This document shows positions 5,069 to 54,595 of a stretch of DNA of 64,000 bases, piece by piece. The translations under genes were made by a program, and so were the position numbers. The notes beneath the pieces were generated by a model, which ran no database searches, was not told where the DNA came from, and worked only from the letters and a program-made list of their open reading frames with translations. Every line of letters starts with the position of its first letter. Within the stretch, counting starts at the first letter, position 1. The stretch lies in assembly GCF_055900595.2 (NCBI RefSeq), contig NZ_CM148325.1; one strand, given 5' to 3'.

Positions 5069-6583
5069 ATGAGTTTTTCCGTTGATGTGCTGGCGAATAT
5101 CGCCATCGAATTGCAGCGTGGGATTGGTCATCAGGATCGTTTTCAGCGCCTGATCACCACGCTGCGTCAGGTGCTGGAGTGCGATGCGTCTGCGTTGCTA
5201 CGTTACGACTCGCGGCAGTTTATTCCGCTTGCCATCGACGGGCTGGCGAAGGATGTACTCGGTAGACGCTTTGCGCTGGAAGGTCATCCACGGCTGGAAG
5301 CGATTGCCCGCGCCGGGGACGTGGTGCGTTTTCCCGCAGACAGCGAATTGCCCGATCCTTATGACGGTTTGATTCCCGGGCAGGAGAGTCTGAAGGTTCA
5401 CGCCTGCGTTGGTCTGCCGTTATTTGCCGGACAAAACCTGATCGGTGCATTGACACTCGACGGGATGCAGCCCGATCAGTTCGATGTTTTCAGCGACGAA
5501 GAGTTACGGCTGATTGCCGCGCTGGCGGCGGGAGCGTTAAGCAATGCGTTGCTGATTGAACAGCTGGAAAGTCAGAATATGCTGCCGGGCGATGCCGCGC
5601 CGTTTGAAGCGCTGAAAGAGACGCAGATGATCGGCCTGTCGCCAGGCATGACGCAATTGAAAAAAGAGATTGAGATTGTGGCGGCGTCCGATCTCAACGT
5701 CCTAATCAGTGGTGAGACGGGAACGGGTAAGGAGCTGGTGGCGAAAGCGATTCATGAAGCCTCGCCACGGGCGGTGAATCCGTTAGTCTATCTCAACTGT
5801 GCCGCACTGCCGGAAAGTGTGGCGGAAAGTGAGTTGTTTGGGCACGTGAAAGGGGCGTTTACTGGCGCTATCAGTAACCGCAGTGGGAAGTTTGAAATGG
5901 CGGATAACGGCACGCTGTTTCTGGATGAGATCGGCGAGTTGTCGTTGGCATTGCAGGCCAAGCTGCTGCGGGTGTTGCAGTATGGCGATATTCAGCGCGT
6001 TGGCGATGACCGCAGTTTGCGGGTCGATGTGCGCGTGCTGGCGGCGACTAACCGCGACTTGCGCGAAGAGGTGCTGGCAGGGCGATTTCGTGCTGACTTG
6101 TTTCATCGCCTGAGTGTGTTTCCGCTTTCGGTGCCGCCGCTGCGTGAGCGGGGTGATGACGTCATTCTGCTGGCGGGGTATTACTGCGAACAGTGCCGCC
6201 TGCGGTTGGGGCTTTCCCGCGTGGTGTTAAGTTCCGGGGCGCGGAATTTATTGCAACATTATAGTTTCCCGGGGAACGTGCGCGAACTGGAACATGCTAT
6301 TCATCGGGCGGTGGTGCTGGCGAGAGCGACCCGCAGCGGCGATGAAGTGATTCTCGAGGCGCAACATTTTGCTTTTCCTGAGGTGACGTTGCCGCCGCCA
6401 GAAGCGGCGGCGGTGCCTATTGTTAAGCAAAACCTGCGTGAAGCGACAGAAGCGTTCCAGCGTGAAACTATTCGCCAGGCGCTGGCACAAAATCATCACA
6501 ACTGGGCTGCCAGCGCACGGATGCTGGAAACCGACGTCGCCAACCTGCATCGGCTGGCGAAACGTCTGGGGCTGAAGGATTAA
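5069..6583 (+). CDS. norR: Sigma54-dependent NO-responsive transcriptional activator NorR
   Basis: 504 aa; GAF N-terminus, AAA+ sigma54 activator core ([14 protein letters not shown]), C-terminal HTH. Confidence 0.94.
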
Positions 6584-18711: not shown

Positions 18712-18804
18712 GGTGAGGTGGCCGAGAGGCTGAAGGCGCTCCCCTGCTAAGGGAGTATGCGGTCAAAAGCTGCATCCGGGGTTCGAATCCCCGCCTCACC
18801 GCCA
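18712..18804 (+). tRNA. serV: tRNA-Ser (GCT anticodon)
   Basis: 93-nt class II tRNA with long variable arm, GGTGAGGTGGCCGAGAGG...CGCCTCACCGCCA. Confidence 0.9.
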
Positions 18805-18807
18805 TTT

Positions 18808-18884
18808 GCATCCGTAGCTCAGCTGGATAGAGTACTCGGCTACGAACCGAGCGGTCGGAGGTTCGAATCCTCCCGGATGCACCA
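18808..18884 (+). tRNA. tRNA-Arg (ACG anticodon), copy 1
   Basis: 77-nt GCATCCGTAGCTCAGCTGGATAGAGTACTCGGCTACGAACCGAGCGGTCGGAGGTTCGAATCCTCCCGGATGCACCA. Confidence 0.92.
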
Positions 18885-18946
18885 TATTCTACGAAATCTT
18901 CAGCAATGAAGGTGTCGAAGAGGTGGCGGTACTAACCGCAAGCACC

Positions 18947-19019
18947 AGGGAGGATAACGTTGCTTTAGCAACGGCCCGAAGGGCGAGCCGTAAGGCGAGT
19001 AATCCTCCCGGATGCACCA
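18947..19019 (+). other. tRNA-Arg 3'-end remnant (aatcctcccggatgcacca) embedded in a 73-nt insert with internal inverted repeat (gggagga...tcctccc)
   Basis: 19-nt exact copy of tRNA-Arg T-arm/acceptor 3' end without a 5' half, seen directly in spacer after copy 1. Confidence 0.6.
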
Positions 19020-19083
19020 TCTCTTACTTGATACGGCTTTAGTAGCGGTATCAAAAAATCTGCAGTAAAGTAAGTTTCCCGAT

Positions 19084-19160
19084 GCATCCGTAGCTCAGCT
19101 GGATAGAGTACTCGGCTACGAACCGAGCGGTCGGAGGTTCGAATCCTCCCGGATGCACCA
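19084..19160 (+). tRNA. tRNA-Arg (ACG anticodon), copy 2
   Basis: Identical 77-nt sequence. Confidence 0.92.
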
Positions 19161-19262
19161 TATTCTCCGTAATCATCAGTGATGATGGTTAAGATGGATT
19201 TTCTTATTTGATATGGCTTTAGTAGCGGTATCAATATCAGCAGTAAAATAAGTTTTCCCGAT

Positions 19263-19339
19263 GCATCCGTAGCTCAGCTGGATAGAGTACTCGGCTACGA
19301 ACCGAGCGGTCGGAGGTTCGAATCCTCCCGGATGCACCA
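19263..19339 (+). tRNA. tRNA-Arg (ACG anticodon), copy 3
   Basis: Identical 77-nt sequence. Confidence 0.92.
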
Positions 19340-19549
19340 TATTCTCCGTAACCTTCAGCAATGAACGTATCGAAGAGGTAGCGGTACTAACCGCAGGCAC
19401 CATCTCCTCCAAAAAATCCCCTTCAAAAATATTTCATTTCTAAATAACTATTTTATCCATTTCCTGAATATTCTTCTCCTTCGCCATCAGCGACAAAATC
19501 AAGCAATTACGCTAAAGTAGCGTCATATTTTTCGACTTGCGAGAAGACC

Positions 19550-20116
19550 ATGTACGAGCGTTATGCAGGTTTAATTTTTGATATGGATGGCACAATCCTG
19601 GATACGGAGCCTACGCACCGTAAAGCGTGGCGCGAAGTATTAGGGCACTACGGTCTTCAGTACGATGTTCAGTCGATGATTGCGCTTAATGGCTCGCCCA
19701 CGTGGCGCATTGCTCAGGCGATTATTGAACTGAATCAGGCCGATCTCGACCCGCATGCGCTGGCGCGTGAAAAAACAGAAGCAGTCAGAAGCATGTTACT
19801 CGATAGCGTCGAACCACTCCCCCTTGTTGAAGTGGTGAAAAGCTGGCACGGACGTCGACCAATGGCTGTAGGAACGGGGAGTGAAAGCGCCATCGCTGAG
19901 GCACTGCTAACGCACCTGGGATTACGCCGTTATTTTGACGCCGTCGTTGCTGCCGATCACGTCAAACATCATAAACCTGCGCCAGACACATTTTTGTTGT
20001 GCGCGCAGCGTATGGGCGTGCAACCAACGCAGTGTGTGGTCTTTGAAGATGCTGATTTCGGTATTCAGGCGGCCCGTGCTGCAGGCATGGACGCTGTGGA
20101 TGTTCGCTTGCTGTGA
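19550..20116 (+). CDS. yqaB: HAD-superfamily phosphatase (fructose-1-P/6-phosphogluconate phosphatase YqaB)
   Basis: 188 aa, HAD motif I DMDGT near N-terminus. Confidence 0.88.
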   Translation: MYERYAGLIFDMDGTILDTEPTHRKAWREVLGHYGLQYDVQSMIALNGSPTWRIAQAIIELNQADLDPHALAREKTEAVRSMLLDSVEPLPLVEVVKSWHGRRPMAVGTGSESAIAEALLTHLGLRRYFDAVVAADHVKHHKPAPDTFLLCAQRMGVQPTQCVVFEDADFGIQAARAAGMDAVDVRLL

Positions 20117-20541
20117 GTGAAGCTTTATCGCTTTTCTCGTTGTTTGCCAGTAGTTTCCTCAGCGCTACACTATTACCCGGTAATTCCGAAGTCGTGCTGG
20201 TTGCAATGTTGCTTTCCGGGGTAAGTCATCCCTAGGTTTTAGTGTTAACAGCAATAATGGGTAATAGCCTTGGAGGGTTAACTAACGTTATTCTTGGGCG
20301 TTTCTTTCCATTGCGTAAAACATCGCGCTGGCAAGAGAAAGCTACTGGTTGGCTGAAACGCTATGGTGCAGTCACGCTATTATTAAGCTGGATGCCCGTG
20401 GTTGGCGATTTACTGTGTCTGTTAGCGGGATGGATGCGCATCTCCTGGGGGCCAGTAATCTTTTTTTTGTGTCTTGGTAAAGCGTTACGTTATGTTGCAG
20501 TTGCAGCAGCGACCGTTCAGGGCATGATATGGTGGCACTAA
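20113..20541 (+). pseudogene. yqaA: DedA-family inner membrane protein YqaA interrupted by in-frame TAG at 20233-20235
   Basis: GTG 20113 opens frame encoding MSEALSLFSLFASSFLSATLLPGNSEVVLVAMLLSGVSHP then TAG; same frame continues as track ORF 20242-20541. Confidence 0.6.
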
Positions 20542-20586
20542 TTGTAGGCCTGCACACATGGTCACCATTACAGTTATGCTAATTAA

Positions 20587-22170
<1,584 letters not shown>

Positions 22171-22178
22171 CAGAAAAG

Positions 22179-22251
22179 AAAAAGGCCACTCGTGAGTGGC
22201 CAAAATTTCATCTCTGAATTCAGGGATGATGATAACAAATGCGCGTCTTTC
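22179..22251 (-). ncRNA. micA: sRNA MicA (SraD)
   Basis: Minus strand reads GAAAGACGCGCATTTGTTATCATCATCCCTGAATTCAGAGATGAAATTTTGGCCACTCACGAGTGGCCTTTTT; terminator hairpin plus T-run; convergent with gshA 3' end. Confidence 0.88.
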
Positions 22252-22319
22252 ATATACTCAGACTCGCCTGGGAAGAAAGAGTTCAGAAAATTTTTAAAAA
22301 AATTACCGGAGGTGGCTAA

Positions 22320-22835
22320 ATGCCGTTGTTAGATAGCTTCACAGTCGATCATACCCGGATGGAAGCGCCTGCAGTTCGGGTGGCGAAAACAATGAACACC
22401 CCGCATGGCGACGCAATCATCGTGTTCGATCTGCGCTTCTGCGTGCCGAACAAAGAAGTGATGCCAGAAAGAGGGATCCATACCCTGGAGCACCTGTTTG
22501 CTGGTTTTATGCGTAACCATCTTAACGGTAATGGCGTAGAGATTATCGATATCTCGCCAATGGGCTGCCGCACCGGTTTTTATATGAGTCTGATTGGTAC
22601 GCCAGATGAGCAGCGTGTCGCTAATGCCTGGAAAGCGGCAATGGAAGACGTGCTGAAAGTGCAGGATCAGAATCAGATCCCGGAACTGAACGTCTACCAG
22701 TGTGGCACTTACCAGATGCATTCGTTGCAGGAAGCGCAGGATATTGCGCGTAGCATTCTGGAGCGCGATGTACGCATTAACAGTAATGAAGAACTGGCAC
22801 TGCCAAAAGAGAAGTTGCAGGAATTGCACATCTAG
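22320..22835 (+). CDS. luxS: S-ribosylhomocysteine lyase (AI-2 synthase)
   Basis: 171 aa with HTLEH metal motif. Confidence 0.96.
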
Positions 22836-22853
22836 TCAGTTTAAGCAGAAGAG

Positions 22854-22887
22854 GCCGGGCTGGTGAAATCACCGCCCGGCTTTTATT
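22854..22887 (+). terminator. Rho-independent terminator after luxS (possibly bidirectional)
   Basis: ggccgggctggtgaaatcaccgcccggc hairpin followed by ttttatt; overlaps stop of convergent HD-kinase gene. Confidence 0.7.
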
Positions 22888-23998
22888 ACCTGTCAGTCAC
22901 CCGATATTCCACGCTATGTGCTTCATCAGGTTGAGGAACTTCCAGCCTTGAGGCCATCCGCATCACGACCGCTTCAGGAACGGCATACTCGCGCCTGGCA
23001 TTTTGCTGCTTCCATTGCGCCCACGGTACTTCCAGATAAACGATTTTTACTCGTGCACCGTAAGCCGTAAATAGACTGATGAGCTGGCTACGCAACTGGC
23101 GGGTAATGTTCGTTGCATTCCAGATGAACGGCTTCTTCTGGCGTAAAAAAACGCGCGCTTCTTCTTTTGCCTGTTGCACAATACGCCCGGTGGCGGTTTT
23201 GTCGTCCGGACTGGCATTGATTCGCCGCCGCATATCATCAAGGCTGATAACGTTCACTCTCTGGCACTGTTCACTGATAAAGCGATCTTTGCCCATACCC
23301 GGTAAACCACACAGCAAAATAACCTCAAAAGATTCAGCCTCCCAGGGAACAAAATCAGGAGAACTTTGTTCATGGGTCAGGTAATGCCAGCGTGCGGAAT
23401 CCGAAGCGAATGAACGCACTTTTCCCCAGCATTGTTGCTCCTGGCAAAATAGCTCGAACAGATCGATGCGTTCCAGCATTGATTGCTGATCATGACAATG
23501 GCGACCAAGCAGATCGGCACGAGCAAGCAAAGCGAGCAGACGTGTGTCGATACGCATTGCAGCCGTGAGCAGCAAACGCTCCGGTTCCGGACGTTCCAGT
23601 AACCATAGCGGTAACCCATGCAGACGCACCAGTGCAACAATTTGCTCGCGTAGCACGAACGGCGTCGGGATATCGCGCCATAAAATTTGTCGGGCCGTCA
23701 ATTCCCCCCGACGAGCATGACCAGGGGACTGAATACGTCCGTTTTCCTGCACGGTAGTACTGCGCTTTTCAACGTCATGCAATAACGCCGCCGCCCATAA
23801 AATTTCCTGCTGCTGAGCGGGGAGTTGCTGAAACTCAGCCATCGCAACGAGTGCGTTCAGCACCATTTCAGTATGCACACCAACGTCGCCTTCACCATGA
23901 TGCTCCGGGTCTTGCGGCGTGTTATGCATATCCTCAACCCAGCTAAAACGCTGGCGTAGCGTCGACCAGCGTTTGTCGTCGGTAAGTTGCCAAATCAT
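22886..23998 (-). CDS. HD-domain phosphohydrolase fused to P-loop polynucleotide-kinase-like domain (candidate RNA end-healing enzyme)
   Basis: 370 aa; N-terminal H...HD motifs ([24 protein letters not shown]); C-terminal Walker A ([13 protein letters not shown]); start overlaps upstream ligase stop (ATGA). Confidence 0.6.
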
Positions 23999-24702
23999 GA
24001 CTGTTCTCCATAAGCGAACTCATGGGCCATCCGCGCCCGTCGCCAGTGGCGTTTCCAGTGCTCGGTGGTTTTGACATGATTTTTGCGCACATACTTGAAG
24101 ACGTTATGCGAAAAGTCAGCGACGGAAAACGCATCACGATTCCGGCTGACAATGCCTTCCAGCGTACAGGGTTGCCCGGTTTGTGTATCCCAGGGATCGA
24201 ACGCGCCGCGCGCATTGGTCAGCGCCAGAAAATCACGTTGCCAGCTTTTTTCATCATTCCCCGGCTGCGGGCCGGAGATTTCGGGAACGCAGGGGAAATC
24301 AAACAGAGCGGCGTAAAACTGCACCTCTTCCCAGCTCAGCCACATATCCTGGCAGCGAACGGCAAACAGGTAAAAGTCCTGTTCCAGGGCGCGGTATTCA
24401 ATGGAATGAACGGCGTAGAGATTTTCACCAAACAGTTCCAGATCGCCGAGATCGTTTTTCAGCAGTTGCCAACGCTGGCGAATTTTATAAGTCCATGCCG
24501 ACTGCGTAGGCGCAGCATGGGAACGGGCAAACACGCCGTAGCGGTTAAGGCAGTTATTTTCGCCGTCGAGTTTTTCTGTATGCACCAATTGCGTGATGGC
24601 CTGTAAATCCTGCCAGTAATCGGCATTAATACGGTCATCGCTGGTGGTGCCAGGGGAGAAAGGATAATGCCAGGTTCTCCCGTATTTCCGTTGGGTATTC
24701 AT
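23995..24702 (-). CDS. Minimal Rnl-type RNA ligase (nucleotidyltransferase domain only; candidate RNA sealing enzyme)
   Basis: 235 aa; motif I KxDGxN (EKLDGEN), motif III-like LFGENLY, motif IV EGIVSR, motif V FKYVRKNH in canonical order. Confidence 0.6.
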
Positions 24703-24923
24703 AATAATCCATTATTTTGTGTGTAATAAATGTACGCCCGCGAGGGTGCGAGTTATGGGGTTAAAAGAAAAATGTGAGTATCACCCGCGAAAGCGAGGGC
24801 GAAGGAAAAAGAGAATTAACAACCTGAGCGAATGCTCAGAACCGGTTAATGGTGAATGGAAGAGTTTGGGGCGGCGAAAAGATACACCGTTTGAGATGAT
24901 AAAACAACCGTTTACAGAATGAG

Positions 24924-24950
24924 CAAATAAAAAGGGAGCCGCAGCTCCCT
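24924..24950 (-). terminator. Rho-independent terminator after emrB
   Basis: Minus strand agggagctgcggctccct hairpin followed by ttttattt, placed between emrB stop and ligase gene. Confidence 0.7.
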
Positions 24951-24959
24951 TTGACAACC

Positions 24960-26498
24960 TTAGTGCGCACCGCCTCCGCCGCCACCTGCGCCAAATGGCG
25001 GTTTAGCAAACCACACCAGCCCCAGCAGGACGAGGAATATCCCGGCTGACATCCAGAAGATCTCATTGGCGGAAATAATCAGCCCCTGATTGGTGATCTG
25101 CTGGGCAATCCAGCCTGATGCCTGTTGTTGCGTCATCCCCAGCCCTTCCAGTTGGCTGTACATCGCCTGAGCGTTCGGGTTAAACGGGTTTACCGACTCG
25201 GTTAACTGTGCGTGGTGCATCGACTCGCGGTTAGTCCACATGGTGGTGGTGATGGATGTGCCGATAGACCCCGCCAGCGTTCGCGTAAAGTTAGAGAGGC
25301 TCGATGCCGCCGCCAGTCGTTCCGGTGGCAAACCAGACAGCGTAATGGTGGTCAGCGGCATAAAGAAGCAGGCCACTGCGAAGCCCTGGATAAACTGCGG
25401 CCAGGCCGACGCACCAAAATCCATACCCGGTTCAAAGGTATAGGCACGCCAGTAGAAGCAGACGGCATACATAATAAAGCTGAAGGTTACCAGCCGCCGC
25501 ATATCCAGTTTATGCGCGAAGCGGCCGATAATCGGCGACAGGATCACCGGAATAATCCCTACCGGCGCAGAGGCCAAACCTGCCCAGGTCGCCGTGTAAC
25601 CGTAGACCTCCTGCAACAACTGCGGCAGCAGAACAATCGCGCCGAAGTAGAGCATATACGCGAGGCTGATACACAAGCAGCCGATGGTGAAGTTGCGCGA
25701 CTTAAACAACGACAGATCGACTATCGGGTTATCGTCGGTCAGCTCCCAGACAATCAGGAAGCAGATAGCCACCACCGCCACCACGGTGAGGATGATTATT
25801 TCCTGCGATGAGAACCAGTCCAGCTCTTTACCGCGGTCGAGCATAATCTGCAGGCTGCCGATACCAATCACCAGCAGTGCCAGCCCCACGGCATCAATCC
25901 GCCGCCGTTCGGTGCGGGTTTCGCGTCCGCGCAGGGTTTGCAGTGTCATCAACACCACCGCCACGCCAATCGGCACGTTGATGAAGAATATCCAGCCCCA
26001 GTGGTAATTATCGCTGATATAACCGCCGAGGATCGGGCCGCAAATTGGCGCGACAATCACCGTCATCGACCACAACGCCAGCGCGATCGAGCGTTTGGCT
26101 GGCGGGTAGTTATTCAGCAATAGACTTTGCGAAAGCGGGATCAATGGCCCGGCGACAATCCCCTGAATCACGCGGAAGAAGATCAGCATATTCAGGCTGC
26201 TGGAGACACCACATGCCCACGATGCAATAGCGAAGGCGATGGTCGACCAGAGGAACAGCTTCACTTCCCCAACACGTTTTGCCAGCCAGCCGGTAAGCGG
26301 GATCGAGATGGCATTCGCCACCCCGAAAGAAGTGATTACCCACGTTCCCTGGCTGAGCGATGAGCCCAGATTCCCGGCGATAGTGGGGATCGCCACGTTA
26401 GCAATGGTGGAGTCCAGCACCTGCATGAATGTCGCTAGTGACAGCGCAATCGTCATAATGACCAGTTGCGCGCCTTCCAGCGGTTTTTGCTGTTGCAT
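24960..26498 (-). CDS. emrB: Multidrug efflux MFS permease EmrB
   Basis: Track ORF 515 aa; probable start MQQQKPLEGAQLVIM at 26498; 14-TM MFS. Confidence 0.95.
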   Translation of the reverse strand: MQQQKPLEGAQLVIMTIALSLATFMQVLDSTIANVAIPTIAGNLGSSLSQGTWVITSFGVANAISIPLTGWLAKRVGEVKLFLWSTIAFAIASWACGVSSSLNMLIFFRVIQGIVAGPLIPLSQSLLLNNYPPAKRSIALALWSMTVIVAPICGPILGGYISDNYHWGWIFFINVPIGVAVVLMTLQTLRGRETRTERRRIDAVGLALLVIGIGSLQIMLDRGKELDWFSSQEIIILTVVAVVAICFLIVWELTDDNPIVDLSLFKSRNFTIGCLCISLAYMLYFGAIVLLPQLLQEVYGYTATWAGLASAPVGIIPVILSPIIGRFAHKLDMRRLVTFSFIMYAVCFYWRAYTFEPGMDFGASAWPQFIQGFAVACFFMPLTTITLSGLPPERLAAASSLSNFTRTLAGSIGTSITTTMWTNRESMHHAQLTESVNPFNPNAQAMYSQLEGLGMTQQQASGWIAQQITNQGLIISANEIFWMSAGIFLVLLGLVWFAKPPFGAGGGGGGAH

Positions 26499-26514
26499 TA
26501 CACGCACCTCTGGA

Positions 26515-27687
26515 TTAGCCAGCGTTAGCTTTTACGATATCGTCGATCAGTTTATTGACAGGAGCCAGGCTTATTTCACGCGCGGTGCTCACCGCTACCG
26601 GCGTAGAACGTACTTTATTTGCCAGTACCTGACCGTCACGGTTAGTGGTATTGACGCTCACCAGCGTGGATAAACCGATACGCAGCGGGTATTGTTCCAG
26701 CTGTTTTTGGTCCAGTTCAATACGTACAGGCAGACGCTGAACAACTTTTATCCAGTTACCAGTGGCATTTTGCGCCGGAAGCAGCGAGAACGCGCTACCT
26801 GTCCCCATATCCAGACCAACCACTTTACCGGTGTATTTCACATCATCGCCGTAAATATCCGTGGTGATGGTGACCGGCTGACCGATGCGCATATTGGCAA
26901 TCTGCGTCTCTTTAAAGTTGGCATCCACCCACATATTGGTGGCTGGAACGACCGCCATCAGCGGCGTCGTTGGGCTAATTTGCGCCCCAGGCTGTACTGC
27001 TCGGCGGGAGACATAACCGGTCATCGGACTGACAATACGGGTACGCTCCAGCGCCAGCCAGGCGTTACGTACTTCGGTGGCAGCCTGTTGCACGGCAGGC
27101 TGATCTTCCAGTTTAGTCCCCAGAATCATCGCCTGATTGGCATTGTATTGTTGAATGGCGACATCCAGTTGCGCCTGGGCACTGGTCACCGCGTCGCGGG
27201 CGTGTTGCAGCTCTTCGCGACCAATCAGGTTGGCATTGCCCAGCGGCACACGGCGGTTGTAGTCGCTTTGTGCTTTCGCGAGGGCGATTTTTTGCACCTC
27301 AATATTCGCCTGCAACTGTTTGCTGTTAATCATCAGCTGGTGGGTTTGGCGCACGCTGGAAGCCAGTGCCGTTTTGGCTTTTTCAAACGCCTGGCGAGCA
27401 TCTGTCGGGTCGAGAGTGACCAGCACATCGCCTTCTTTTACAAAATCGGTGTTATCGGCCCAGACTTTCGTCACGCTGCCAGACACCTGAGACATAATTT
27501 GAATCTGATTCCCTGCCACGTATGCGTCATCGGTTTCTTCGAAATGACGCAGTACTAAAAACCAATAAATCCCTATCGCTACGGCAATAATTATAAAGAG
27601 CAAGGTGAGAAGCAGGAGCAGACGCTTACGTTTGCCGCTCTTCTTTACCGGTTGCTGCGGGGTTTGAGTCTCCGCATTTGCGCTCAT
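26515..27687 (-). CDS. emrA: Multidrug efflux membrane fusion protein EmrA
   Basis: Track ORF 394 aa; probable start MSANAETQTPQQ at 27687. Confidence 0.95.
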   Translation of the reverse strand: MSANAETQTPQQPVKKSGKRKRLLLLLTLLFIIIAVAIGIYWFLVLRHFEETDDAYVAGNQIQIMSQVSGSVTKVWADNTDFVKEGDVLVTLDPTDARQAFEKAKTALASSVRQTHQLMINSKQLQANIEVQKIALAKAQSDYNRRVPLGNANLIGREELQHARDAVTSAQAQLDVAIQQYNANQAMILGTKLEDQPAVQQAATEVRNAWLALERTRIVSPMTGYVSRRAVQPGAQISPTTPLMAVVPATNMWVDANFKETQIANMRIGQPVTITTDIYGDDVKYTGKVVGLDMGTGSAFSLLPAQNATGNWIKVVQRLPVRIELDQKQLEQYPLRIGLSTLVSVNTTNRDGQVLANKVRSTPVAVSTAREISLAPVNKLIDDIVKANAG

Positions 27688-27813
27688 ATTGTTCTCCACG
27701 ATCTTCTTAACTCATCGGCTGAGCCGACCTGCTTGCCAAAAAGGCCAGCATGTTGCGATGCTGGCCAGTCATTTTTTCTGTTATAAATCTGGATTTTTGA
27801 GCGAGATGACGCG

Positions 27814-28344
27814 TTAGCTCATCGCTTCGAGAACCACACCGTCTTGTTCCATCTGGTCGAGACGGGAGAGCAATTTGCGGGTGATTTGCTCGAGCTGATC
27901 TTTTTCTGTTGTGCTGAGCGCGGACCAGAGTTGATGCAGGCAATTATGCTGCGGTGGTAAAACTTCGCGCAAAAACTCGTGACCTTTTTCCGTTAATTGC
28001 AGATGCAGGCAGCGGCGATCGTTATCGCTTTCACGACGTTCGATCCAACCGCGTTTTTCCAGTTCATCGGCAATACGCGTCGCGTTGGTACGGGATGATC
28101 CAAGAGCACAACTCAATTCAGAAGGCTGAATACTGTGGTTTTCCTGAGACTCCAGCGTAATCAACGCCATAAACAACGTCTCGTTAATCCCCTGAGCCTT
28201 CAGCATTTTATTGCGGTTCTCCAGCAGCTTGCTTTGCATATGCATGCAAAGACGGGTCAGAAGGATCTCCTGATAAGGAAAATCTTCGTGGCGGCTGGCG
28301 CGAAATTTTAGCATTTGTTCAATGGGCGTAAACGAACTATCCAT
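27814..28344 (-). CDS. mprA: MarR-family repressor of emrAB (MprA/EmrR)
   Basis: 176 aa MarR wHTH; upstream of emrA. Confidence 0.94.
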
Positions 28345-28434
28345 TTGGGTATGACCTCATTAATTTCAGCCGATATAGTAACGACAGTGACAAATAAAGT
28401 AAATGTATTGTTTTAGAAAAATGATTCTTGTGGG

Positions 28435-28770
28435 TTATATAATCGCCATCACTTTCCAGGCGAGCCCATAGGCCAGCGCACTAAGCAGTGTTGGGATGAT
28501 AATGCTGCGTGTTTTATAGAAACTGGCACCCAGTACCGCGAAGCCGACCAGAGTGGGCACGAAACGGCGTGTATCGTGCATCACTTCTGGTGCGGTAGAG
28601 ACAACCAGCAGAGCGCATATCGAGGCGATGCCAATGGTGTCGAGCAAAATACCTACCGCGCCACGTTTGGTTGGGCGGGCATTACCCACACGCAGGCGCA
28701 GCGGCAAATAGCGGAAGCAATAATTCGCCGCGCCAACCAGTAACCCAAGCAGCAGAACCTCATAGCTCAT
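28435..28770 (-). CDS. ygaH: AzlD-like branched-chain amino acid (L-valine) exporter small subunit
   Basis: 111 aa membrane protein overlapping ygaZ stop. Confidence 0.85.
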
Positions 28771-29497
28771 CGGGCGCTCCTTGCCAGAATGCCTGGATTA
28801 ACGCAGTGAGGCAGCCACAGACAATGCCTGCCAGAATGGCGACGGGAATAGAAAATAGCGTTACGCCTGCAAGGGCACCAACTAACGCTGCGGTAACGCA
28901 AAGAGATTGTTTGCGCTGGAAAGATGCGAGCAGGAAACTCATAAAGAGTGCCGGAAGCATAAAACCTAATGCTGCTTCAACGGCGGGATATCCTTGCAGC
29001 AAGCCGCTGCCGGAGAATGCCCCTATTACCGTACCAAATACCCACGATGACCATGAACTGAAGGCAATGCCGATCATCCAGTTCTCGCTCCAGCGGCGAT
29101 TATTGCGTACCAGTTTTGCGGTTGCGGCGGCAAAAACCTCATCCGTCAGGCCAAACGCCCACAGGGCGGTTTTCGATTTTTGCAGACGCTGAATAATACG
29201 GCTACGCAGTGACGGGCCATACAAAACATGGCGAACATCCATTGCCATGACGGTCAGTGCAGCAACCCACAAACTACTCCCGGCTGCCAGCATCGCGGTA
29301 ATGACGAACTGGCTCGCGCCTGCATAAATGATGCAGGAGAAAAAAACGCTTTCGAGAGGAGAGAATCCCAGACGGGTCGCATTCAGACCGAACGCAAAGG
29401 CCACCGGAATATAACTAATAACAATCGGTAAACTGTCTTTGCATCCTTCCATGAAGGTCGCCGAACCAGGAGCAGGCTGTGGAGTAGGGCTTTCCAT
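28760..29497 (-). CDS. ygaZ: AzlC-like L-valine exporter large subunit
   Basis: 245 aa polytopic membrane protein. Confidence 0.85.
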
Positions 29498-29620
29498 AGA
29501 GTGTACGCTTAACGATTGTTAATATTATAAATAGACTGAATGAATATCTTAACCTTATCAGACTGATGGGCTTCTTAACACCCTTATAAGTGTAAAGCCA
29601 CGAAAACGGTTGCTGATTGC

Positions 29621-30805
29621 TTAATTTGCGGCTTCCTGACGATGAAAACCTCGCCACCAGACCAGTAAGTTAACCAGGGCAATCGTCGCGCCAGCCAGAC
29701 AAACGCCAGACCAACCGCCATGTTGCCAGGCTGAGGCTGAAATTAGCGAACCGGCGGCACCGCCAATAAAGTAGCTGGTCATGTAACCTGCGGTCAGGCG
29801 ATTACGCGCATCAGGGTGTATTCGATAAATTACCGTCTGGTTAGTGATATGCACGCCCTGCACGGTGAGGTCCAGCACCAGGATGCCGATAATCAAGGCC
29901 AGTACGGAAGTGTGGCCAAACCAGATAGCAAGCCATGAAAGTAACAGCAGCAGCAGACCGAAAGTTGTGGTGTGGTGCGATTTGCCCTTATCGGCAAAAC
30001 CGCCCGCCGGACGAGCGCCCAACGCTCCGGCAGCTCCCGCGAGTCCAAACAGACCAATGACGCCATCGCTGTAGTTAAAAGGTGGAGCGGCGAGCAAAAA
30101 GGCCATTGAGGTCCAGAGAATGCTGAAGTTGGCAAAGGTCAGGCAGCCCAGCAACGCGCGGGTGCGCAGAATTTTATCGCTGATAAACATACTGAAAACG
30201 GAACCTAACAACTGTGGATAGTTGAGGTGGGTTTCTGATTTCATCTGCGGCAGGCCGCGCCATAACGCCAGCGCCATCAGTGCCATTAACACCGAGGCAA
30301 CCCAAAAGACGGTGCGCCAGCCGCCGAGGTTTGCCAGCAACCCGGCAACGGTTCGTGCCAGCAAGATCCCCAACAGCAGCCCGCTCATAATGGTGCCGAC
30401 CACTTTGCCGCGTTTGTCCGGTGAAGCCAGCGTCGCTGCCAGCGGAACCAGAATTTGTGCCACGACCGAGAATAAACCGGTTAATGCCGTACCGAGGATC
30501 ATCATCGCCAGCGACTGACTGCTGGCGGTAATCAACATACCGCCCGCTGCCAGTAAGGTCATCGAGACAATCAGGCGGCGGCGTTCAAACATATCACCGA
30601 GGGGAACAAGAAACAGCAGACCTGCGGCATAGCCCAACTGCGCGGCGGTAACAATAAAGCCCGCCGAACTGGCGGAAAGGGAAAAGTTACGCGCGATGGT
30701 GTCGAGTAATGGCTGGGCGTAATAGTTACTGGCTACCGCCAGACCGGTGGCGATAGACATCAGCACGATCAGTGCCGGGCTAAGCTCATGATTAGGTTTA
30801 GTCAT
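29621..30805 (-). CDS. ygaY: MFS transporter YgaY (intact here)
   Basis: 394 aa uninterrupted MFS ORF between ygaZ and proX. Confidence 0.8.
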   Translation of the reverse strand: MTKPNHELSPALIVLMSIATGLAVASNYYAQPLLDTIARNFSLSASSAGFIVTAAQLGYAAGLLFLVPLGDMFERRRLIVSMTLLAAGGMLITASSQSLAMMILGTALTGLFSVVAQILVPLAATLASPDKRGKVVGTIMSGLLLGILLARTVAGLLANLGGWRTVFWVASVLMALMALALWRGLPQMKSETHLNYPQLLGSVFSMFISDKILRTRALLGCLTFANFSILWTSMAFLLAAPPFNYSDGVIGLFGLAGAAGALGARPAGGFADKGKSHHTTTFGLLLLLLSWLAIWFGHTSVLALIIGILVLDLTVQGVHITNQTVIYRIHPDARNRLTAGYMTSYFIGGAAGSLISASAWQHGGWSGVCLAGATIALVNLLVWWRGFHRQEAAN

Positions 30806-52342: not shown

Positions 52343-54595
52343 TTACAAATAGAAATAGTTCGGCGGTTCTCCTGTTTTCCCTAAAAGAAGAGCGCTGCGC
52401 CCAGGAATATTGATATTTAGAGCTCCGCCTCTAAGCGTAAATACTTTACCAGGGGGAATACTTTTGCGTGTATTATTATTATTAATGGTAACGCTATTAC
52501 TCCCCATGTTTTTATATATTCCTGGTTGCAATTTGTTAGGCCAGGTACCTTCAACTTCTTCGTTTCCTTTATTTATTATAACTAGTCCATCATGAGGAGA
52601 GTGATTAATGTTCACAGAATCCCCACGACTAAAGGCCAGAACATTTTTAGTTGCAAATACACCCTCAAATGCGCTCCATATTCCTTCTTTATCTATATAT
52701 AATGCGTGGAATTCATTGTAGAGCTGCTGATAGGTAGAGCAACCTTTATTAAGCCACGCCTCACCGCCGACACGAGTGGACCCATCATCATTTTTAATCT
52801 CAGTCGTTGATTTTAATACCTGACCATCCCAGTAAACTAAAGGCCTGCTGAACGGGAGAGCGGCCATATATGCCATTGCTAATTGTTCATCTTGCTGATG
52901 GTTAAATAAAAAGTCATTGAAAAGATTACCATTGTTAGGGAAATCGTGGTTGATGTTAATCAATATCCGTCTTTCTGATGGGATGCTTGAGATTGCGGAA
53001 CCCGGTTTTGATGCAAGGGTTTGGAGATCTCCACCGAATGAAAAGGCTTGTATCGTCTTCATGAGCAATGAAAAATCAATGGCGCTTAAATCATCTCTTT
53101 CATAAAGCAGCGATGACATTTGTTGTTCATCTAACGGACAAGTTACCAGGTATTCCATGTAATTCATAACAGCTTTTTTTTGATATTTTGGATTAAATAA
53201 ATTTGTATTGTGCAACCGCTCATTATAATTTTTAAGCGGTGGGGTTATCGACCTCTCTATTTGTTCATGTTTTGAGTGTTTTGCTGCATCATAACGTAAA
53301 CCTCGTACGCCATATTTTCGCATTTCACGAACGTATTGATTTTGCAACATAATAACCTGGTCACTTTTGGGTGTTGTTTTAGGCATTCCATTTAAACGCT
53401 TTTCTTTTAATGCATGGAGGTTTTCCCATTCATCCTTAGAAATATTATCTTTACTTGCTTCGAAGTCTTTTGCAGTGAGATGTATATCTTCTGGATGGAT
53501 TTGGTCACGTTCTTTTGTTACTGGATCTATAATAAAGGGAATCAAGACCTGACCTTGCCAATAGCCAGGGATACCACTTTCTATATCTTTACTAATCTTC
53601 GCTCGTATATCGGCAGAGGGATAATCCAGATCATTTTTACCACTACCCCCGATTCCCATAAAGTTAAATGTATAATCAGGAATGATATCGATGCCAAATT
53701 TTTTGGCATCTTTAACCAATGCGATAAAATCCTGCAAATCTCCCATTGGATTATGGATGGTACAAAGATCTTCGGGTTGATAAGCGTGATACCAGTAACC
53801 TTTTTCTTCTTCAGGTGTTTCTGGTCCGTCGGCGCGGAAAGTTGTTACGGGAGGGATTTGTATATAACCATAATGGCAACGTGCAAACTCGGCCATATTT
53901 TTCCTGATTTGCTGGTAGGTGGCATTAAAAGCATGAAGAATCGCCTCGCCAGGTTTTTTGGGTGTGATGATTTCACATTGTGATTTCTGATCAGCAGTAA
54001 GAGATTTACGCTCAAGTGTTTGCCGTAGATGTTCTGGATTGATTAATATTTTAAATGTTTCTTGCTGGCCGGAAGGTGACGTTACGTTAATATTATATAC
54101 ATCAGCTGCCAGTTCATAGTCAGGAATGTTAATAGCATATGCAACATACTTATCTTTTGGAGACGGTTTGTCAGATATAATGTGAGTGAAATGTTCAGCT
54201 GGACCATACTGATGAACACCGCTGTTATCACCTCTTTCAATCATTGTATCTCGTTGATAAACCCATGTTTTTCCTTCTCCTATCCTGTCTGGCGCTGTAA
54301 TGCTACGCTGTGCTGCTTTATTCAACTCTCGGTAAGTTGTATCTGGAAAAAGGGAAATTTTATAATCGTTTTTTAACAGATCATTAATGACTTTTTCTGC
54401 GTGAAAAGTTGATATAATTTCTCTGTCTTTTAAATCCTGAGGATAAACTCCACAAGAATTAATAATATTTGTTATACAGTTCAGATATTCTAATGTATTT
54501 AATTTGGAATTTAGATCCCCGTCAGTAATGTTCCATGATAACAATGTGGGGTTGTCGATAGGTAAATTTCTTGGTCCTGGTTTTATAGAAAACAT
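52343..54595 (-). CDS. ygaQ: Uncharacterized 750-aa protein YgaQ (apparently intact); weak resemblance to GH13 alpha-amylase catalytic-region motifs
   Basis: Uninterrupted AT-rich ORF between csiD and tRNA-ileY; FGIDIIPDYTFNFMG segment is GH13-like but the function call is low-confidence. Confidence 0.6.
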   Translation of the reverse strand: MFSIKPGPRNLPIDNPTLLSWNITDGDLNSKLNTLEYLNCITNIINSCGVYPQDLKDREIISTFHAEKVINDLLKNDYKISLFPDTTYRELNKAAQRSITAPDRIGEGKTWVYQRDTMIERGDNSGVHQYGPAEHFTHIISDKPSPKDKYVAYAINIPDYELAADVYNINVTSPSGQQETFKILINPEHLRQTLERKSLTADQKSQCEIITPKKPGEAILHAFNATYQQIRKNMAEFARCHYGYIQIPPVTTFRADGPETPEEEKGYWYHAYQPEDLCTIHNPMGDLQDFIALVKDAKKFGIDIIPDYTFNFMGIGGSGKNDLDYPSADIRAKISKDIESGIPGYWQGQVLIPFIIDPVTKERDQIHPEDIHLTAKDFEASKDNISKDEWENLHALKEKRLNGMPKTTPKSDQVIMLQNQYVREMRKYGVRGLRYDAAKHSKHEQIERSITPPLKNYNERLHNTNLFNPKYQKKAVMNYMEYLVTCPLDEQQMSSLLYERDDLSAIDFSLLMKTIQAFSFGGDLQTLASKPGSAISSIPSERRILININHDFPNNGNLFNDFLFNHQQDEQLAMAYMAALPFSRPLVYWDGQVLKSTTEIKNDDGSTRVGGEAWLNKGCSTYQQLYNEFHALYIDKEGIWSAFEGVFATKNVLAFSRGDSVNINHSPHDGLVIINKGNEEVEGTWPNKLQPGIYKNMGSNSVTINNNNTRKSIPPGKVFTLRGGALNINIPGRSALLLGKTGEPPNYFYL

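Follow-up and report, generated by a model that had tools for sequence, protein, structure and literature searches.

A likely recent amber mutation in yqaA, a DedA-superfamily gene of Escherichia coli

The DNA analysed here, a stretch of 64,000 nucleotides from contig NZ_CM148325.1 of RefSeq assembly GCF_055900595.2 (hereafter the window), carries a copy of yqaA whose codon 41 is an amber stop. We regard it as highly probable that this codon reflects a genuine, very recent and isolate-specific G-to-A mutation at position 20234, which converted the Trp41 codon TGG into TAG and created a loss-of-function allele of yqaA, the gene for an inner-membrane protein of the YqaA family in the DedA superfamily. 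Translation coupled to yqaB would then begin normally at GTG 20113 and end after 40 residues, the released peptide would consist of re-entrant hairpin 1 of the minimal DedA domain only, and the other 99 codons, specifying transmembrane helix 1 (TMH1), a loop, re-entrant hairpin 2 and TMH2, would be translated little or not at all. Both the type of event and its mechanism are already known, this being an ordinary nonsense mutation in a known gene.

The locus has the gene order yqaB-yqaA-gshA, as in strain K-12. Upstream, yqaB (19550-20116, plus strand) is an intact open reading frame of 188 aa for a HAD-family sugar phosphatase, annotated under this name in near-identical genomes and separated from its counterpart in E. 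coli AST85 by one synonymous difference, at 19891. As the initial annotation had proposed, yqaA opens at GTG 20113, this start and the yqaB stop (TGA, 20114-20116) overlapping within the four nucleotides GTGA. From there the frame encodes MSEALSLFSLFASSFLSATLLPGNSEVVLVAMLLSGVSHP and then meets TAG at 20233-20235. Codons 1-40 (20113-20232, plus strand) are the sole part that ordinary translation would make and correspond, in the structural model described below, to re-entrant hairpin 1 and a short linker. Past TAG, the frame remains open for 102 further sense codons up to TAA 20539-20541. Open reading frame, alignments, Pfam and synteny together delimit a gene of 142 codons with one nonsense codon inside (20113-20541, plus strand), that is, a pseudogene allele of yqaA. 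The 99-codon remnant that follows the stop in the same frame (20242-20541, plus strand; native codons 44-142) was also described correctly at the outset, save that its first codon, taken for Met, is GTG (native Val44); the earliest in-frame ATG stands at 20257 (codon 49). Downstream, gshA (20614-22170, plus strand; glutamate-cysteine ligase) is intact, with a TTG start and its own strong Shine-Dalgarno site, and is the neighbour that would be exposed to any transcriptional polarity.

With Trp41 restored, the protein is a recognizable member of its family. The repaired 142-aa YqaA matches the Pfam VTT_dom (PF09335) over residues 29-132 with 41.3 bits, above the gathering score of 33.9, and falls into one 90%-identity cluster with YqaA of Escherichia, Salmonella and Citrobacter, as expected of an ortholog. 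The uninterrupted frame of a DedA/YqaA family gene is what the window lacks, TAG standing at codon 41. No NCBIfam family matched the repaired YqaA, and an assignment of the fragment to UptA was rejected (NCBIfam 16 bits versus a cut-off of 300). Neither a PDB sequence search nor Foldseek against the PDB returned a solved relative. An alignment of 101 diverse homologs and the repaired protein (102 sequences) served as input for an AlphaFold2 model, which was obtained with a mean pLDDT of 95.2 and a pTM of 0.87. In this model, re-entrant hairpin 1 is formed by a helix (residues 3-19), a turn (20-24, LPGNS) and a second helix (25-35), a linker (36-39) leads to TMH1 (40-64), a helix (72-93), a turn and a further helix (97-107) include re-entrant hairpin 2, and TMH2 (112-141) closes the chain. 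Two facing re-entrant hairpins, each with a transmembrane helix after it and the first turning at a conserved Pro(-Gly) ahead of an acidic residue, are thus predicted for the repaired YqaA only. This is the architecture that Okawa et al. defined as the minimal DedA domain, in which re-entrant loop 1, with its turn at Pro-Gly, is followed by TMH1, an extramembrane stretch, re-entrant loop 2 and TMH2, and YqaA was singled out in that study as consisting almost entirely of it (bioRxiv 10.1101/2020.12.18.423352). Unlike this minimal domain, the polypeptide encoded in the window stops between re-entrant loop 1 and TMH1 and does not provide the domain as a single chain.

The stop occupies the second residue of the modelled TMH1, just past hairpin 1. 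Conservation of Trp41 as such is weak (28 of the 102 sequences have W), and the residue belongs to the most variable stretch of the family, residues 36-42. The 40-aa stub retains T19, P22, S25 and E26, of which P22 is found in 100/102 sequences and E26 in all 102, G23 being present in 70/102. All the other invariant residues, N51, G54, P95, G98, D99, G106 and R126, lie downstream of the stop. The remnant, native residues 44-142, amounts to TMH1 without the first turn, followed by the loop, re-entrant hairpin 2 and TMH2, and scores 33.1 against VTT_dom when taken alone, just under the gathering score. According to the model, neither piece is predicted to hold a complete DedA domain, and we infer a loss of YqaA function, since the two facing re-entrant hairpins are both required for the presumed substrate site.

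Comparison with relatives places the mutation on the terminal branch of this isolate. yqaA is a core gene: a 551-nt query around it matches about 5,423-5,424 of 5,426 complete E. coli genomes, always under features annotated yqaB and yqaA. No identical match to this query was found among the 5,426 genomes, the eight best each differing at one base. In a gene alignment that took in one close genome, one slightly more distant and one typical, the G-to-A change at 20234 is the sole difference across the 429 nt of yqaA from the closest complete genomes (428/429 nt identical). AST85, Z0117EC0005 and six further near-identical complete genomes thus share the haplotype of the window bar one base and differ from it in having an intact gene (WP_032303635.1). 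The K-12 alignment that the initial annotation had called for was run and bore out the Trp codon expected there: codon 41 of MG1655 yqaA (b2689), the same gene in the same context, is TGG within an intact 142-aa open reading frame, where the window has TAG. Over this gene the window and K-12 share 410/429 nt and, TAG apart, the 18 differences are 15 synonymous and 3 missense (I37V, T47I, M139I), a pattern that fits a gene historically under purifying selection.

At a larger scale, 19 SNPs and 1 indel separate the window from AST85 across 63,194 nt. Polarisation with a second close genome, Z0117EC0005, and the outgroup 2017-02-2CC shows that A at 20234 is derived on the terminal branch of the window itself. 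Nine substitutions are derived on this branch in about 63 kb, namely 4 synonymous, 3 missense, 1 intergenic and the nonsense change in yqaA, a mix that points neither to poor sequence quality nor to hypermutation or a general decay of genes. The three missense changes are His to Pro and Arg to Ser in hypF (window positions 511 and 657) and Arg to Cys in csiR (45079). The yqaA allele hence has the attributes of a recent point-mutation pseudogene: its stop is premature with respect to the orthologs and derived, and no other decay is seen in the gene. The mutation is judged recent because the rest of yqaA is undamaged.

The lineage as a whole is rare among the genomes searched. Over a 24-kb core (window 8000-32000), only 8 of the 5,426 complete genomes reach an identity of 99% or more, and after those 8 the next-best among the matches listed is about 97% identical, which, on these nucleotide identities, suggests a divergent E. 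coli lineage as the source of the window.

The explanation that competes best with a genuine mutation, while still improbable, is that the natural strain carries TGG and that the A stems from faulty base calling or polishing, or was acquired by the sequenced culture as a mutation during laboratory passage. The initial annotation had likewise left room for a sequencing error. One deviating base against eight genomes that are otherwise nearly identical is what such an artefact would look like, and the allele is known only from the window and one read set, possibly of the same isolate. Against it, the Logan assembly of the raw reads of SRR27886137 matches window 19322-30541 (11,220 nt) with 100% identity, TAG included, and its contig runs through the site uninterrupted, with no break or bubble. 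Since an independent assembler also arrives at A when starting from the raw reads, a true A is favoured over an assembler error. An assembly artefact is therefore unlikely; SRR27886137 coming from the isolate of the window itself or from a sister isolate, a mutation of the culture is still compatible with this result. Moreover, the site, CCCTAGGTT, lies outside any homopolymer, the window looks accurate elsewhere, as with an amylase-like open reading frame that is intact where two relatives are frameshifted, and the other eight derived SNPs form an ordinary mix. The genuine nonsense mutation, first of the readings proposed at the outset, is accordingly the one that gained support: a single TGG-to-TAG transition relative to K-12 and to eight near-identical genomes, with the same base in a read-based assembly.

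The allele is also rare in public data. In a collection of some 15 billion proteins, an exact copy of the 99-aa remnant product occurs on one contig only, which is that of the Logan assembly of SRR27886137, as compared with 400 contigs for the repaired 142-aa allele in the same collection. TAG-bearing 61-mers, synthetic and native and representing both the K-12-like haplotype and that of the window, found no exact match in the 5,426 complete genomes. From the single-contig record and the lack of any exact 61-mer match, the TAG allele is therefore confined to a single isolate or a very small clone. The 94-aa product expected from ATG 20257 was encountered on 12 public contigs and considered as a recurrence of the allele, a possibility that was rejected as these contigs are not TAG carriers. 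Among them, contigs L008-L012 begin at window position 20256, probably owing to a break of the assembly graph at the polymorphic site 20255, and the alignment shows that L007 carries TGG. L007 (ENA metagenome scaffold VATA22-2...scaffold_4474, position ~419) also lacks 2 bp of yqaB relative to the window (20032-20033) and contains a stretch of N in gshA, oddities that probably reflect a low-quality assembly rather than biology.

A restart of translation behind the stop, at GTG 20242 (6 nt past TAG) or at ATG 20257, yielding a 99-aa or 94-aa product that works alone or joins the 40-aa hairpin, had been put forward in the initial annotation as a source of truncated protein, and we hold it to be very unlikely. 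Translation is classically known to resume behind early nonsense codons, as in lacI. The yqaA remnant offers a start codon in the same frame only 6 nt beyond the stop, and the break falls in the most variable linker of the family (36-42), between two structural elements, at a site of the kind where split membrane proteins sometimes still assemble. The sequence signals nonetheless lend the restart no support. Shine-Dalgarno pairing is -3.6 kcal/mol for GTG 20242, a value not altered by the mutation, and -1.8 kcal/mol for ATG 20257, as against a background of internal codons with a mean of -2.8 kcal/mol, 46% of which are at or below -3.0, and a value of -11.5 for gshA. The product would lack T19, P22, S25 and the invariant E26, and stays under the Pfam gathering score. 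Natural short forms are likewise wanting: the homologs drawn from 90%-identity clusters (at least 120 listed) are all full length, the short entries of a 50%-identity library look like fragments, and the public 94-aa calls are contig-end artefacts. Neither a convincing ribosome-binding site nor natural short forms among homologs, both of which mark a split gene, were thus found for the remnant.

In its most demanding version, termination followed by reinitiation would deliver a 40-aa and a 99-aa polypeptide, and these would come together in the membrane as a working two-piece DedA domain. This we consider extremely improbable; if true, it would be a natural demonstration that the halves of a minimal lipid-transporter-like fold can be expressed separately. 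Other signals were sought in and around the gene. A promoter scan gave nothing above chance as an internal promoter for the remnant open reading frame or for gshA. A hairpin resembling a terminator (20218-20232, with TAGGTTTTAG behind it) was rejected because the count of such hairpins equals the shuffle expectation and its arms are unaltered by the mutation. An Rfam scan placed no known RNA family in yqaA, the nearest being MicA, downstream of gshA.

The chance that the amber codon is read through, by a suppressor tRNA or by high near-cognate readthrough, to give functional amounts of full-length YqaA is next to negligible: nothing in the data speaks for it; the tRNA genes from which classical suppressors arise (glnV, tyrT, serU and leuX) lie outside the window; the tRNAs inside it (Ser(GCT), three Arg(ACG) and one with a CAT anticodon), in addition to tmRNA, include no CTA anticodon, so that within the window the suppressor allele suggested earlier for inspection was not found; and the mutation belongs to a terminal branch, where nothing indicates that it is maintained. 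The conservation of the stop codon that would mark functional readthrough is absent from the relatives examined, and the 5,426 complete genomes contain no exact copy of the TAG-bearing 61-mers. In natural isolates suppressor alleles are seldom encountered, and amber codons are read through at a low basal rate.

Several other features of the window were recorded alongside. The serV-arg tRNA cluster (window 18712-19339) holds three tRNA-Arg(ACG) genes (18808, 19084 and 19263), as does that of AST85; four are present in K-12, Z0117EC0005, 2017-02-2CC and N3. The missing copy is the one reached by the 139-nt spacing, and was presumably lost by tandem-repeat recombination. Between luxS and emrB, on the minus strand (22886-24702), the window encodes an AAA-family ATPase (Pfam AAA_33, weak KTI12) and then an RNA ligase family protein; the insert looks like a small RNA-repair-type cassette, judging from these domains. 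In K-12 only 63 nt separate luxS from emrB, and in 2017-02-2CC the ATPase is frameshifted. At the far end (window 63035-63557), the tmRNA gene (63196-63557, minus strand) directly adjoins the end of ypjA, whereas in AST85, Z0117EC0005 and 2017-02-2CC the similarity to the window ends at 63194-63228 and integrase-bearing islands follow ypjA. Since tmRNA adjoins ypjA where the relatives have islands, the isolate would therefore be without the ssrA-associated island, or have excised it. The alpha-amylase-like gene mentioned above (52343-54595, minus strand) is an intact 750-aa open reading frame in the window, is annotated as frameshifted in AST85 and Z0117EC0005, both with an extra C at window position 54261, and as having an internal stop in 2017-02-2CC. 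At the indel site the window and the outgroup are alike, so the frameshift is derived in the branch of AST85 and Z0117EC0005. Finally, a second early stop, in ypjCB (SNPs 56009 and 56059), was rejected, as it reflected only a different start-codon annotation.

Returning to the probable loss of yqaA function, its tolerance has precedents. E. coli possesses eight DedA paralogs, and a TraDIS screen found no significant change for yqaA (PMC8803141). In a heterologous assay of all eight paralogs, high-level UndP-transport activity was obtained from DedA only (bioRxiv 10.1101/2022.02.03.479048). In nature, yqaA is disrupted in the U288 clade of Salmonella Typhimurium, and transposon insertions in Salmonella yqaA left colonisation of the pig colon unaffected (PMC8065163). 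In both instances the orthologous gene has been inactivated naturally in an enterobacterial lineage. The two lesions are nevertheless of a different nature: that of U288 is an insertion, fixed clade-wide and part of a stepwise genome degradation, whereas the window has a nonsense point mutation, seen in a single isolate or clone. Because yqaA is dispensable on its own and seven other DedA paralogs are present in E. coli, its loss would be tolerated, and we infer that paralog redundancy accounts for this tolerance. The loss may still carry a cost in nature, since yqaA is a core gene whose differences from K-12 are 15 synonymous to 3 missense.

In annotations, a yqaA pseudogene with an internal stop is the proper label for the locus, and not a 99-aa 'VTT-domain protein' as in one public gene call. 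For the family, the allele provides one more natural example that Enterobacteriaceae tolerate the loss of yqaA alone, consistent with redundancy among the DedA paralogs. Moreover, the isolate would be usable as a natural yqaA-null strain for studying an uncharacterised subfamily of DedA proteins.
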